Assembly (NCBI RefSeq): GCF_056712565.1
Contig: NZ_CM160072.1
DNA: 64,000 nt
Direction: 5' to 3' (one strand)
Positions 27,001-33,000 of the stretch are shown here, one piece after another. The stretch's first letter is position 1; each line of letters opens with the position of its first letter. Made by a program: the position numbers.

Positions 27001-30000
27001 CTCACGGTGGATATATATCACCCGCGGCATTTATTCCACTTGCTGAAAAATGCGGATTAATCGTTCCGCTTACGCAAAGCCTGATGAATCAGGTTGCCAG
27101 ACAGATGAACGCTATCGCGAGTAAACTGCCGGAAGGTTTTCATATTGGGATTAATTTTAGCGCCTCGCATATTATTTCGCCGACGTTTGTCGACGAGTGC
27201 TTAAATTACCGTGACAGTTTTACCCGCCGCGATTTAAACCTTGTTCTGGAAGTCACCGAGCGTGAGCCATTAAATGTTGATGAAAGTCTGGTTCAGCGGT
27301 TGAACATTCTGCATGAAAATGGTTTTGTCATCGCGCTGGATGATTTCGGTACTGGTTACTCAGGGCTTTCTTATCTGCATGACTTGCATATTGATTATAT
27401 CAAAATTGATCATAGTTTCGTTGGCCGCGTCAACGCAGACCCAGCATCAACCCGAATTCTGGATTGTGTATTGGATCTGGCGCGTAAACTTTCGATCAGT
27501 ATCGTCGCTGAAGATGTCGAAACGAAAGAACAATTTGACTATCTGAACCAAAATAATATCACATTTCAGCAGGGTTATTATTTCTATAAACCTGTTACAT
27601 ACATCGACCTGGTCAAGATTATCCTTTCTAAACCGAAGGTGAAGATTGTGGTTGAGTGAAAATTGATCAGCAAGGCCATGGTGCGGTGTAATTATAGACA
27701 GCTAATTAGCTCGTTGCCTCTTGTTACTATTGTTCATTCTTTTGTTTGCTATAATTGTGTGAAAGTTTTGACTGGATTGCCATTAGTAGCATGAACAATA
27801 GTAATAATCTGGATTATTTCACTCTCTATATCATCTTTTCCATTGCATTTATGCTGATCACTCTCCTGGTCATCCTTATTGCAAAACCCAGCACCGGGCT
27901 GGGAGAAGTGCTTGTGACGATAAATTTGCTTAATGCCCTGGTTTGGCTGGCGATCAATCTGGTTAATCGATTAAGGGAAAGACTCGTCAGCCACAGGGAT
28001 CAGCACTAATCTTTCAGTTTCTCACTGCCAGTATGCGGCTGAATGGGTTGCTGGCAGTGAACCCCTGGATCATTGAAGGAAAGGAATTATTGCACAAATA
28101 GTTGTCAACCCTGGTGTTATCACAGTTGTTTTATATATCAGTGAAATAATTTCCATGGCAACTGTTGATAATTTTGATGTCGAAGAGTTATTTGTTAAAC
28201 AAAATAGTTACCCCAAAGTGATCAATGTCATGAAAATAAGCTAAAAATGATAATGCTGGCTTATTTATCATTTAAATATTGTCGCTGTTTATCTATTTAA
28301 ATTTCTTGTGCTTTTGTTTTTATCTTTGCCTTCCGTTTTGGTAATCTGAACTCATAGGTTATTTGACCAGGAATGTTTGTTAATCCAATGAATGGATGGT
28401 TAATCTATGAAACTGAAAAAACTCCCCGGATTTAGTTTAGGACTTATTGCTCTGGCGGTGGGTAATGCATATGTAACGCAATTGTTGGATATTTATAGTA
28501 TAATTTCCTATATAACCGATGAAGAATCACCGATTGAAATCAAAAATAATACTTCTACAAGTAATGGGGAGTATCTAATCACTTAAGACGAAAGCCATGC
28601 TGTGAAAGTGGATGACGGTGTAACTGGATATATACATAATGCCAGTGTGATGACTAGTGGTGATGGATCTTATGGTATTTCTGTTGATAGCCAAAACAAA
28701 GTATTATATATAAGCGATAGCAATATTAAGACGCTCTGAAAGCGTATCTGACAAAGAAAATGGAGGGATAACAGCCAGCGCAGTAGTCAGTGAATTTGGT
28801 GGCACCATCGTTATGAATGGTGATAATTCAGTCGAGACGAGGGGGCATATTCAGCGGGACTTTTAAGTCAGATTAATGATTCTGGGACTGTGGAAAATAA
28901 CACCCGTCTTGAAACCACAGATAAAACGAACATTGTTACCTATGGGGAAAAATGCAGTAGGAGTTCTTGCATGTTCAAGTCCTGGAGAGTCTCGAACATG
29001 TGTCGATGCTGTAGATGATGAAGTTTGTGATTCTAACAGTTACGAAGTTATTAGCCGTGCTGATTTAAAAATGAATGGTGGTTCCATAACAACTAATGGT
29101 ATTAATAGCTATGGTGCTTATGCTAATGGGAAAAAAGCATATATTAATTTAGATTATGTGGTACTTGAAACTGTGGCTGATGGAAGTTATGCAGTTGCTA
29201 TTCGACAAGGTAACATTGATATAAAAAAGTTCTATTACAACAAATGGCACTAAAGCCCCCATTGCAAAAATATACAATGGTAGAGAGTTATTTTTTTCCA
29301 ATGTCACTTCAGAATCAACAGAAACGCCTACCCCCGTCCTGCGACCCGAAGCTGGCAGTTACGTCGCCAACCTGGCAGCCGCTAACACTCTTTTTGTTAT
29401 GCGTCTGAACGATCGTGCAGATGAAACGCGCTATATCGATCCTGTAACTGAACAGGAGCGTTCAAGCCGATTTTGGCTACGTCAAATTGGCGGGCATAAT
29501 GCCTGGCGTGACAGCAACGGACAGTTGAGAACGACCTCGGCACAGGCCATCTGGATGGGCGTCGATCATAATGTGCACACGGAAGCCAATGGCTCACGTA
29601 TTGAGAATGACGCAAATAACAATATCCAGACCCGACTTGGTTTCCACACCTTTATTCGTACTCAGGAGAAAAACAGCGGTCCGCACGGTGACGACTTTGA
29701 ACCTTTTGTTGAAATGAACGGGATCCATAACAGTAAAGATTTTGCTGTCTCAATAAACGGTGTGAAAGTTGAACAAGCCGGGGCGCGTAATCTGGGGGAA
29801 ATTAAACATGGCGTAAATGGCAATCTGAATCCTGCGGCCAGCGTCTGGGGTAATGTGGGCGTGCAGCTGGGTGATAATGGCTACAATGACAACGCAATGA
29901 TGGTGGGCCTGAAATATAAGTTCTGATCCCGCCATTAGCTAAAAAACCGCGTCGAATTCATCGACGCGGTAACATATGAAATATTATTTTTTGCCGATAG

Positions 30001-33000
30001 CACGCATGGTGTCATCAATTGCCGTGATCAACAGCATTTGCGGATCTTTAGCGCAAACCTGATTCAGTTTTTCTACCACTTTGGCGCTCAGTTCCGGAGA
30101 TTGCTCAATTTTTAAATCACGGCTGGCAACGCTGGCATTACCCATTACCGCAACAATTTCTGCAACCTGTGCGCTGTCAGTTTTTGCCATTTCGTTGGCT
30201 TCTGCGCAAGTAATATAGGTTTCTGATGGCAAACCGTTCTTAATATTGTAGTCCTGCGCCCAGGTCATTGGTGCGAAAACAAACAGACCCGCCAGTAAAG
30301 CAAATTTTTTCATCATCATTCCTTATTTCATTTTACCCAGAATTGCACCACCCGTACCGCCAATCACGGCACCTTTAATCGCCCCTTCGAGGCCATTGCC
30401 GGTCAGAACGCCAGTGACAGCACCAACGGCGGCACCCACTTTTGCACCTTTACGCGCATTTTTACCGTCGCGGCCTTTTTCTGTTACTGCACCAACACCA
30501 GCGCCAACAGCTGCACCTTTCAGTACGCCATTAACACCATTGCCAGTAAGTAAACCAACGCCTGCGCCTAGCAATGCACCTTTCGTGGTGCGATTCATAT
30601 CCGCCATCGCTGGCGTGGAGCAGAACAATGCTGAGATAAGCCCGAAGGCAAGTATTTTTTTCTTCAACTTAGTTGTCCGGTATTAAGTAAGTTGCACACA
30701 CAATAATTTCGTCTTCAATTAAGATCTGCTTAACTAAAGAACGCTCGCTATTATTCAGATAATTCAAAATGAGCGTGACTGTGATGATAGGAATTATGTT
30801 TTTTACGGGAATGAGAATAATCTCAAATGAGAAATAACTCATTGATTGACAATATTTTTATTCAAGAAGTGTCATTGACTGTTAACGCAATGTTGTAAAG
30901 GTAAGATAATCTGATTTATCAATATTATTGTGTGATTGTTATGTGAGCAGAAGATATTCATTAGCAACGATTACATTAGTCATTTTATTTTGTGGACGGC
31001 CTCATTGTCGAAAAATAAGCGTACGACAGTATTATCAGAAAAGAGTGATTTTTTATCCAACAACACTTCAGCGCACTGCGTTTAAAAAATACCTCTTTCT
31101 TATACGGGATATCATCATTTCATCATGATGTCTTTGATGAGCGGTGAACACAATACATTTGCGCTGTCTCTTCAGGATGAATCCCCTGGTCTGGTTCCTG
31201 CGGGCTGATGTTGCAGCAGAGCTAAGGTCACTTAGACGCTACTATCATTTATCCAATGCATGGAATCGAAATCAGTCGATACCCGCAGTATATATCGTGA
31301 ACTGGGCGCAACGCTGAGTTACAACATGCGTCTGGGGAACGGTATGGAAATTGAACCCTGGCTGAAGGCGGCTGTGCGCAAAGAATTTGTCGATGATAAT
31401 CGAGTGAAAGTGAATAGTGACGGTAATTTTATCAATGATTTGTCGGGTAGACGTGGAATATACCAGGCAGGTATTAAAGCCTCATTCAGCAGTACGTTAA
31501 GCGGGCATCTCGGGGTGGGGTATAGCCGTGGTGCCGGTGTGGAGTCCCCGTGGAATGCGGTGGTCGGTGTGAACTGGTCGTTCTGACCATCAACGATTAA
31601 ACTGCGTTTCGGCGCTGTTTTTGTTTACCGGGTGCTAAAAGGGAAAATTCTGGGGCAAAAAAAAGCCCGTCAGTTACGGCGGGAAACCTCATCCTATGGG
31701 AGAACAATGAATAATGAAATTGCGGGGTTATCATCTCCCAGGATATCCACGCTAACAATAAGGTTATTTACTCAACCAGGCGTAAACATTTTGTTCTGTG
31801 CGTGGGAACAGCCTTAAGGTGTAAAGGGGGAGGGGGAAATAGCAATGAATAGTATCAGCAAGAATACTCGCCGCTTTACCACAACGTGGATGAGAGGGAT
31901 GAAAAACTCAAGGCAGAGATGACTCTGCCTTGAAGATAAATGCGCTTTTACAGGGGGCTTATTTCAGCTCTTCTGCTTCCGGTAAGGTCACGTTCAGCTC
32001 AAGAATAGAAATATCGCCATCTTTTTGCTCAAGCTGTACGGTTACCATCTCAGGATCAATTTGTACATATTTACAAATGACCTCAAGAATATCTTTACGC
32101 AACTGCGGCAGATAATGCGGTTCTGCATCGCTGCGACGGCGTTCAGCAACAATAATCTGCAACCGTTCTTTTGCAATGTTGGCTGTGTTTTTCTTCCGCG
32201 AGAGAAAGAAATCGAGTAATGCCATAACTTATCCTCCGAACAAGCGTTTGAGGAAGCCTTTCTTCTCTTCTTCAATGAAGCGGAAAGGACGTTCTTCTCC
32301 CAACAGACGTTCTACGGTATCTGCGTAGGCTTTACCCGCATCGGCGTTAATGTCGAGAATGACCGGTTCACCCTGGTTAGAGGCGCGCAATACTGATTGA
32401 TCCTCTGGGATCACGCCGACGAGTTTGATGCGCAGGATCTCCAGCACATCTTCCATGCTCAGCATGTCACCTCTGCTTACGCGGCCTGGGTTATAGCGCG
32501 TTAACAGCAGGTGCTCTTTAATCGGCTCTTCGCCATTTTCTGCGCGGCGTGATTTCGACGCCAGAATGCCTAAAATACGGTCAGAGTCGCGTACTGAGGA
32601 GACTTCCGGATTGGTGGTAATAATGGCTTCGTCTGCAAAATAGAGTGCCATTAACGCACCGGTTTCAATCCCTGCCGGGGAGTCACAAACGATAAATTCA
32701 AAATCCATCGCTTTCAGATCATCAAGAACTTTGGCGACCCCTTCACGGGTGAGGGCATCTTTATCGCGAGTTTGCGATGCCGGAAGAATATAGAGATTTT
32801 CAGTACGTTTATCTTTAATTAACGCCTGGTTTAGCGTTGCATCGCCCTGAATGACGTTGACGAAATCGTAAACGACCCGGCGTTCACAACCCATAATCAG
32901 GTCGAGATTACGCAGGCCGATATCAAAATCTATCACGACAGTTTTCTTTCCCTTCTGGGCCAAACCAGTGGCGATGGCCGCGCTGGAGGTTGTCTTACCA

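Follow-up and report, generated by a model that had tools for sequence, protein, structure and literature searches.

Autotransporter remnants ycgH (b4491, a 2648-bp pseudogene, "autotransporter YcgH" at NCBI and "pseudogene - autotransporter" in PMC4447067) and ycgI (b4521, a 344-bp pseudogene) lie on either side of ymgD, ymgG, ymgI, and ymgJ in Escherichia coli K-12 MG1655. K-12 ycgH is itself broken, into open reading frames (ORFs) of 506 and 344 amino acids (aa); a literature search on ycgH turned up no study of intact YcgH and found the gene also mentioned in a genome-reduction strain report. A third relative, YpjA/EhaD (K-12 b2647, 1526 aa), is an AIDA-I-type autotransporter grouped with biofilm-forming AIDA-type autotransporter adhesins (PMC9289746). 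Here, we report on positions 28407 to 31586 of a 64,000-nucleotide stretch of contig NZ_CM160072.1 (RefSeq assembly GCF_056712565.1; the whole stretch is called the window), which very probably contain what is left of two distinct, no longer functional genes for classical (type Va) autotransporter adhesins, on either side of the intact small envelope-protein genes ymgD, ymgG, ymgI, and ymgJ. This is ordinary gene decay, and the ycgH and ycgI pseudogenes are already known and annotated; the ycgH copy of this lineage is unusually degraded.

Window positions 27400 to 32600 were used as a megablast query against 5426 complete E. coli genomes and matched 5424 of them. This 5.2-kb region was 100% identical to phylogroup B2/sequence type 95 (ST95)-type strains S88, APEC O1, and IHE3034 and type strain ATCC 11775, was 100% identical across all 30 best-matching assemblies listed, and reached at least 99% identity in 450 records; judged by these matches, the window is an E. 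coli phylogroup B2/ST95-like chromosome. Lesions were counted by nucleotide and codon-wise alignment to the intact genes of assembly GCA_053151455.1 (hereafter L010), and deletion junctions were counted in the same 5426 genomes with 80-bp probes spanning each.

The segment runs from the ycgH start codon (28407) to the final base of the ycgI stop codon (31586) and corresponds to K-12 ycgH'-ymgD-ymgG-ymgI-ymgJ-ycgI', upstream of minEDC. In S88, the annotated order is a pdeG remnant, ymgF, two "hypothetical proteins," an autotransporter outer membrane beta-barrel pseudogene, ymgD, ymgG, a ymgI homologue, two small ORFs, a second autotransporter β-barrel pseudogene, and minE-minD-minC. RefSeq labels the S88 autotransporter pieces "frameshifted; incomplete; missing N-terminus," at coordinates that agree with the window. 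An earlier note, made from the letters of the sequence, had named ycgH and ycgI, placed them around ymgD, ymgG, and ymgI, and given the outer limits of the segment; names, order, and limits all agree with the S88 RefSeq and K-12 annotations.

The order ymgF-ycgH-ymgD-ymgG-ymgI is kept relative to K-12, with 95.8 to 97.7% identity along the locus, which identifies the first remnant as the orthologue of K-12 ycgH. In both strains ycgH lies between ymgF (upstream) and ymgD (downstream), and where both copies retain sequence they agree at about 96% of nucleotides. Their passengers also belong to one allele type and have in common a 15-bp in-frame indel at codons 118 to 122, which is therefore allelic, not inactivating. 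Window ycgH, at 1520 bp, is about 1.1 kb shorter than K-12 ycgH because of two extra deletions, and K-12 lacks the codon-60 stop, the four small frameshifts, and the two large deletions found here. K-12 also aligns with window positions 29539 to 33879, including the junction at 31243, as one 97.7% block, which identifies the second remnant as the orthologue of K-12 ycgI; the two have the same deletion junction and ymgJ-minE position and differ in a secondary 1-bp deletion. YpjA/EhaD extends about 400 aa further at the N terminus than the intact protein encoded at the ycgI locus of other strains and, unlike ycgI, lies at a different locus, adjoining the CP4-57 prophage remnant, with no similarity in the flanks.

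Intact alleles were found for both remnants. The K-12 N-terminal ORF, used as a protein database query, retrieved more than 100 near-full-length YcgH-type proteins (mostly 828 to 885 aa, many of 882 to 885 aa) with Pertactin, AC_1, and autotransporter β-domains, and a spread sample of the E. coli genome collection held many "autotransporter YcgH" pseudogenes together with an allelic "ECIAI39_1904 family autotransporter adhesin." Protein P0053 (885 aa), one of the strongest tblastn matches to the window, is encoded in L010, a 5.0-Mb assembly in which YcgH (6001-8658), a 1128-aa ycgI-locus autotransporter (10003-13389), and pdeG are all intact and which thus provides an ancestral-state reference for the whole interval. 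In strain GMF065 (hereafter L009), the ycgH position is occupied by an intact ECIAI39_1904-type gene encoding 882 aa and the ycgI position by a gene encoding 1120 aa, likewise intact and annotated YpjA/EhaD. Both assemblies therefore hold two separate intact genes at the two positions, with ymgD, ymgG, ymgI, and ymgJ between them. GMF065 was dropped as a reference for the ycgH passenger because its passenger is a different allele; alignment at the DNA level is confined to the first 67 bp and the last ~600 bp of the gene.

In the intact YcgH (885 aa), Pfam places AC_1 at residues 410 to 526, Pertactin at 431 to 536, and the β-domain at 606 to 863. The intact YcgH (P0053) and the ECIAI39_1904 allele (882 aa, WP_001578183.1) occupy the same chromosomal position as window ycgH and, unlike it, are read through without interruption and retain AC_1, Pertactin, and the entire β-domain. 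The first 22 residues, in the signal peptide, are identical in the window, L010 YcgH, and the ECIAI39_1904 allele; the window passenger is of the YcgH type, and its linker and barrel pieces are about 93 to 97% identical to YcgH. At the ycgI locus, the intact protein (1128 aa) combines six AIDA repeats with Pertactin, a Pro-Asn repeat linker, and a complete β-domain; about 1010 of its residues align to K-12 YpjA, at 80% identity. The ycgH locus thus occurs with two passenger types, YcgH and ECIAI39_1904 (L010:6001-8658 versus L009:7073-9721, minus strand), which share the signal peptide, are 24 to 68% identical over residues 1 to 550, and are 90 to 100% identical over residues 551 to 885, a mosaic that suggests replacement of the passenger via recombination.

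Window ycgH survives as plus-strand ORFs at 28407-28586 (59 aa), 28602-28739, 28876-29253, and 29399-29926 (175 aa, ending ...MVGLKYKF), and intact YcgH proteins match it by tblastn in successive pieces and three frames (E values of ~1e-124, 1e-46, and 1e-79), a similarity that we judge to be far above chance. The 59-aa ORF begins MKLKKLPGFSLGLIALAVGNAY; these residues 1 to 22 are identical to those of intact YcgH and constitute an N-terminal Sec signal peptide, with an apparent basic n-region, hydrophobic core, and G-N-A cleavage-type motif. The ORF is ended by a nonsense mutation (AAA to TAA) at codon 60 (28584-28586), much as the earlier note had described in reporting a signal-peptide ORF stopped after about 60 codons. 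The next fragment (Table 1) carries four frameshifts, namely, +1 (G at 28733), -1 (after 28840), +1 (A at 28948), and -2 (after 29227), across which tblastn switches frames 1→2→1→2→3.

Two large deletions follow, both in-frame. The first removes 735 bp, YcgH codons 306 to 551, including the autochaperone AC_1 and Pertactin region (residues 410 to 536 of the intact protein); the second removes a net 387 bp (393 bp when measured against alleles with a 6-bp insertion at codon 758), ycgH codons 628 to 757, which is the first half of the β-barrel. Both being frame-preserving, ORF 29399-29926 reads across the second junction. Direct repeats or microhomology at the deletion junctions were sought, and none was found beyond a base or two. 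The last fragment is about 93 to 95% identical in amino acids to intact YcgH proteins, and ORF 29399-29926 matches PF03797 above the gathering score (E = 1.2e-7) over profile positions 139 to 254 of 255. Relative to L010, ycgH has in total one nonsense mutation, four frameshifting small indels, and two large in-frame deletions.

At ycgI, the window is collinear with L010 up to L010 position 9973 and, from 31243, resumes at 13045. The intervening 3071 bp (L010:9974-13044) are deleted; they begin 29 bp before the start codon and extend as far as codon 1014 of 1128, so that the start codon is lost and no Sec signal peptide is left in ycgI. The surviving ORF (31260-31586, plus strand) encodes 108 aa ending in ...VVGVNWSF and matches PF03797 above the gathering score (E = 1.4e-10) over profile positions 164 to 254 of 255. 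The ORF list and the two PF03797 matches thus bear out the earlier note's separate passenger and β-barrel pieces of ycgH and its isolated second barrel C terminus.

Table 1. Features of the ycgH-ycgI segment and its intervening genes (window coordinates)
Feature	Coordinates	Strand	Description	Basis
ycgH fragment 1	28407..28586	+	Start codon, Sec-type signal peptide, first passenger residues	ORF list; codon alignment to L010:6001-8658
ycgH fragment 2	28587..29307	+	N-terminal third of passenger, codons 61-305 of 885	Alignment to L010
735-bp deletion junction	29307..29308	+	In-frame, 245 codons	BLAST versus K-12 and L010
ycgH fragment 3	29308..29539	+	Codons 552-628, linker and start of β-domain	97% aa identity to intact YcgH
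387-bp net deletion junction	29539..29541	+	In-frame, 129 codons	Alignment to K-12 and L010
ycgH fragment 4	29541..29926	+	Last 128 β-barrel codons, terminal ...KYKF, original stop codon	
Terminator-like hairpin	29946..29970	-	10-bp stem, T-run, just downstream of ymgD	Consensus scan only
ymgD	29984..30319	-	Intact, 111 aa	Pfam PF16456, E = 1.1e-49
ymgG	30323..30667	-	Intact, 114 aa, glycine-zipper protein	Pfam PF13441, E = 2.9e-14
ymgI homologue	30669..30842	-	Intact 57-aa ORF	Positional orthologue of K-12 ymgI
ymgJ homologue	30943..31128	+	Intact, 61 codons	Annotation transfer from S88 and K-12; translation compared with L010
ycgI deletion junction	31243	+	3071-bp deletion	BLAST versus L009 and L010
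ycgI remnant	31243..31586	+	Last 114 β-barrel codons (1015-1128), ...NWSF, stop	Pfam; L010 alignment

Neither remnant would be expected to make an autotransporter as the intact genes do. The single uninterrupted ORF from signal peptide to barrel is broken in ycgH by the stop at codon 60 and the four frameshifts; the passenger has lost its C-terminal autochaperone (PF18883 AC_1/PF03212 Pertactin) with codons 306 to 551; a Pfam search of the window fragments gave no passenger-domain match; and neither ycgH nor ycgI retains a complete β-barrel (PF03797, ~255 profile positions). No secretion-competent product should be possible from either gene, because no piece joins a signal peptide to a complete barrel and because both the autochaperone and half the strands of the barrel have been lost.

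Codon differences from L010 were 19 synonymous to 34 nonsynonymous in the ycgH pieces and 9 to 7 in ycgI. Among the neighbors, the same counts were 3:0 in ymgD, 0:0 in ymgG (identical coding sequence), 0:1 in ymgI, and 5:0 in minE, or 8 synonymous versus 0 nonsynonymous for ymgD, ymgG, and minE pooled. The counts fit neutral decay of remnants beside conserved neighbors, although they are crude and the passengers of functional adhesins also evolve fast. Both marks of a unitary pseudogene were thus found, namely, relaxed constraint and lesions that disable the gene when it is compared with its intact orthologue at that locus.

The lesions are shared across lineages to different degrees. The 735-bp junction was found in 1037 of the 5426 genomes and the 387-bp junction in 1044 (~19% of complete genomes), and every carrier identified by strain was B2 (ST95-like, ST131, CFT073, or ATCC 11775). 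The window, ST131, CFT073, and Ecol_276 have in common the TAA at codon 60, the -1 at nucleotide 449, the -2 at nucleotide 836, and both large deletions. Among the lineages compared, the +1 at nucleotide 326 occurs in the window and CFT073 only, and the +1 at nucleotide 556 is private to the window lineage, being absent from ST131 and CFT073. ST131 has further ycgH lesions of its own (an 11-bp deletion within the signal peptide and TGA at codon 300), and other lesion sets were seen in K-12 (CAA to TAA at codon 512 and -1 at nucleotide 2583, near the 3' end), GPEC1356 (TAG at codon 262, TAA at codon 599, and +1 at nucleotide 900), and ABW_A19 (-1 at nucleotide 736). Different lesion sets in different lineages indicate that ycgH was independently inactivated at least four times.

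The ycgI junction was present in 4588 of the 5426 genomes (~85%), K-12 included, and the deletion is consequently old or widely spread. A 1-bp deletion after 31257 (remnant position 16) also occurs in ST131 and CFT073 and is lacking in K-12, which has a different 1-bp deletion at remnant position 109; GPEC1356 has no 1-bp deletion.

Insertion sequences were also seen at the locus. SF-173, GN05064, and GN04979 carry IS1A inside the equivalent of 27400-32600 (ycgH-minD) and are otherwise identical, the match being split and spanning 5978 versus 5201 bp. IS5, ISKpn26, or IS903B lies within ycgH of other strains.

The lesions, their distribution, and the intact alleles are direct observations; from them we infer loss of function and, from the grading of lesions from shared to private, an order of events. 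Ancestral ycgH would have encoded an 882- to 885-aa autotransporter with a signal peptide, a β-helical passenger, an AC_1/pertactin autochaperone, and a 12-strand β-barrel. Its destruction in this B2 lineage would have been stepwise. A first set of lesions, common to ST131 and CFT073, would have comprised the codon-60 stop, the -1 and -2 frameshifts, and the 735-bp and 387-bp deletions; a later +1 common to CFT073 and a further +1 that ST131 and CFT073 lack would have followed. Ancestral ycgI would have encoded a 1120- to 1128-aa AIDA-repeat autotransporter, a paralogue of YpjA/EhaD, from which one 3.07-kb deletion would have taken the start codon and 90% of the coding sequence, with a lineage-specific 1-bp deletion later.

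Several observations weigh against this account. A σS-RNA polymerase chromatin immunoprecipitation sequencing (ChIP-seq) peak was reported over the 5' end of K-12 ycgH (PMC4447067); the upstream region is conserved here, so the ycgH remnant may still be transcribed, as a dead gene that may keep an active stationary-phase promoter. Both large ycgH deletions are in-frame, which would happen by chance about 1 time in 9. Finally, the ycgI remnant is about equally close to the 3' end of K-12 ypjA (94.5%) and to the L010 ycgI-locus gene (94.8%). Nothing found contradicts the pseudogene reading of ycgH and ycgI. The σS peak spans K-12 positions 1219400 to 1219949, equivalent to approximately 28200 to 28750 of the window.

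A different view of why the genes were lost is that selection has repeatedly favored loss in the ymgF-minE interval, which would be a polymorphic hotspot for adhesins. It draws on the presence of two autotransporter genes, the exchangeable passenger "cassettes" of the YcgH locus, the loss of ycgH in at least four lineages, and the deletion of ycgI in ~85% of genomes, and we hold it to be speculative and rather improbable. The pattern of loss could then mean that the genes were actively selected against, whether for immune evasion or because of antagonism toward other adhesins or biofilm programs, and did not decay neutrally, and the B2 double in-frame deletion could be the trace of an intermediate, shortened protein that was still translated.

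Far less probable is that some fragments are kept for a new function, whether as the 59-aa ORF, as the fused 175-aa barrel ORF, or as regulatory or terminator DNA for ymgD and minE. The Prokaryotic Genome Annotation Pipeline (PGAP) does annotate two of the fragments as "hypothetical protein," the two large ycgH deletions are both in-frame, the σS ChIP-seq peak (PMC4447067) lies at the K-12 ycgH 5' end, and the surviving 3' ends adjoin the convergent, conserved ymgD and minE, with the terminator-like hairpin beside ymgD. However, lineage-specific breakage continues (the 11-bp signal-peptide deletion and TGA of ST131; the differing 1-bp ycgI deletions of K-12 and B2), nonsynonymous changes are in excess, the 175-aa ORF lacks a signal peptide and retains no more than about half of the β-domain, and no Rfam match was found in the region. 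The two PGAP "hypothetical proteins" of S88, WP_001304450.1 (28407-28586) and WP_001362931.1 (28942-29253), are pieces of the ycgH pseudogene.

Slightly less probable again is that ycgI was never full length here and arose when a 3' fragment of ypjA was duplicated or transposed, as its near-equal identity to the two genes would allow. The near-equal identities mean that identity alone cannot assign the paralogue of origin; the collinear flanks do. Both sides of the junction are collinear with L009 and L010, where a full 3.36- to 3.39-kb gene occupies the exact position, and the downstream flank of ycgI has no similarity to that of ypjA, so that in-situ deletion is the supported origin. In addition, the 5' 3 kb of the full-length ycgI-locus gene has matches of 95% identity or more in about 437 records, and each of the four of these records listed has a second matching place consistent with true ypjA, which matches the same 5' 3 kb at about 92% elsewhere in most genomes.

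It is highly improbable that the ymgD-ymgG-ymgI-ymgJ block inserted into one ancestral gene, of which ycgH and ycgI would be the halves. The two remnants share the plus strand and a match to the same Pfam β-domain, but each has its own barrel C terminus, terminal aromatic motif, and stop codon, their profile spans overlap and are not complementary, and in L009 and L010 the ymgD/G/I/J genes are flanked by two genes that are complete and differ from each other. The earlier note had left open one or two autotransporter adhesins; the two barrel ends (KYKF and NWSF) and the two-gene loci of L009 and L010 uphold two and rule out a single split gene.

Sequencing or assembly errors in genes that are really intact, the outcome that the earlier note thought resequencing might reveal, have a negligible probability and are ruled out by the population counts, since the same lesions stand in hundreds to thousands of independent complete genomes, with identical sequence in the 30 best assemblies and near identity in the 450 records, recurrence of all three large junctions at the frequencies above, and the nonsense codon and two frameshifts also in ST131 and CFT073 assemblies.

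The remains of two decayed adhesin genes are known biology, and the overall importance of the finding is small. Two annotated pseudogenes were correctly recognized from raw sequence alone, without tools; the alignment to intact autotransporters and lesion count that the earlier note had proposed rebuilt the ancestral pair explicitly from L010, and the resolution into two gene types and the population frequencies are likewise added here. The 735-bp and 387-bp ycgH deletions, together with an N-terminal deletion in pdeG that accompanies them in ~19% of complete genomes, may serve as B2 lineage markers, and WP_001304450.1 and WP_001362931.1 can be cleaned up in annotation as pseudogene fragments. 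E. coli repeatedly drops both adhesins, and the rare strains that keep both intact are material for the study of YcgH and YpjA-paralogue function.

Around the remnants, the terminator-like hairpin lies where ycgH and ymgD converge, within the 57 bp that separate their stop codons; a promoter/terminator consensus scan of the region gave counts not above shuffled expectation, and an Rfam scan of 26000-33000 gave no family match. Both 3' remnants lie beside convergent conserved genes (ymgD and minE), which may mark the limits of tolerated deletions. The ymgJ homologue, intact in the window, is annotated as frameshifted in ST131 (L012:3945-4129) and Ecol_276 (L014:5025-5209). Upstream, pdeG (cyclic di-GMP phosphodiesterase) is a remnant at 26766-27659 (region 26762-27659) without its start codon and ~210 N-terminal codons (CSS-motif domain), from a deletion of ~660 to 670 bp relative to K-12 and L010; RefSeq labels it "missing N-terminus" in S88, ST131, CFT073, and Ecol_276, and the loss appears common to these B2 lineages. 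GC content falls to 34 to 36% at 25000-26500 (ycgZ-ymgA-ariR-ymgC) and 28000-28500 (the ymgF-ycgH intergenic region) and is ~45 to 50% around minCDE.

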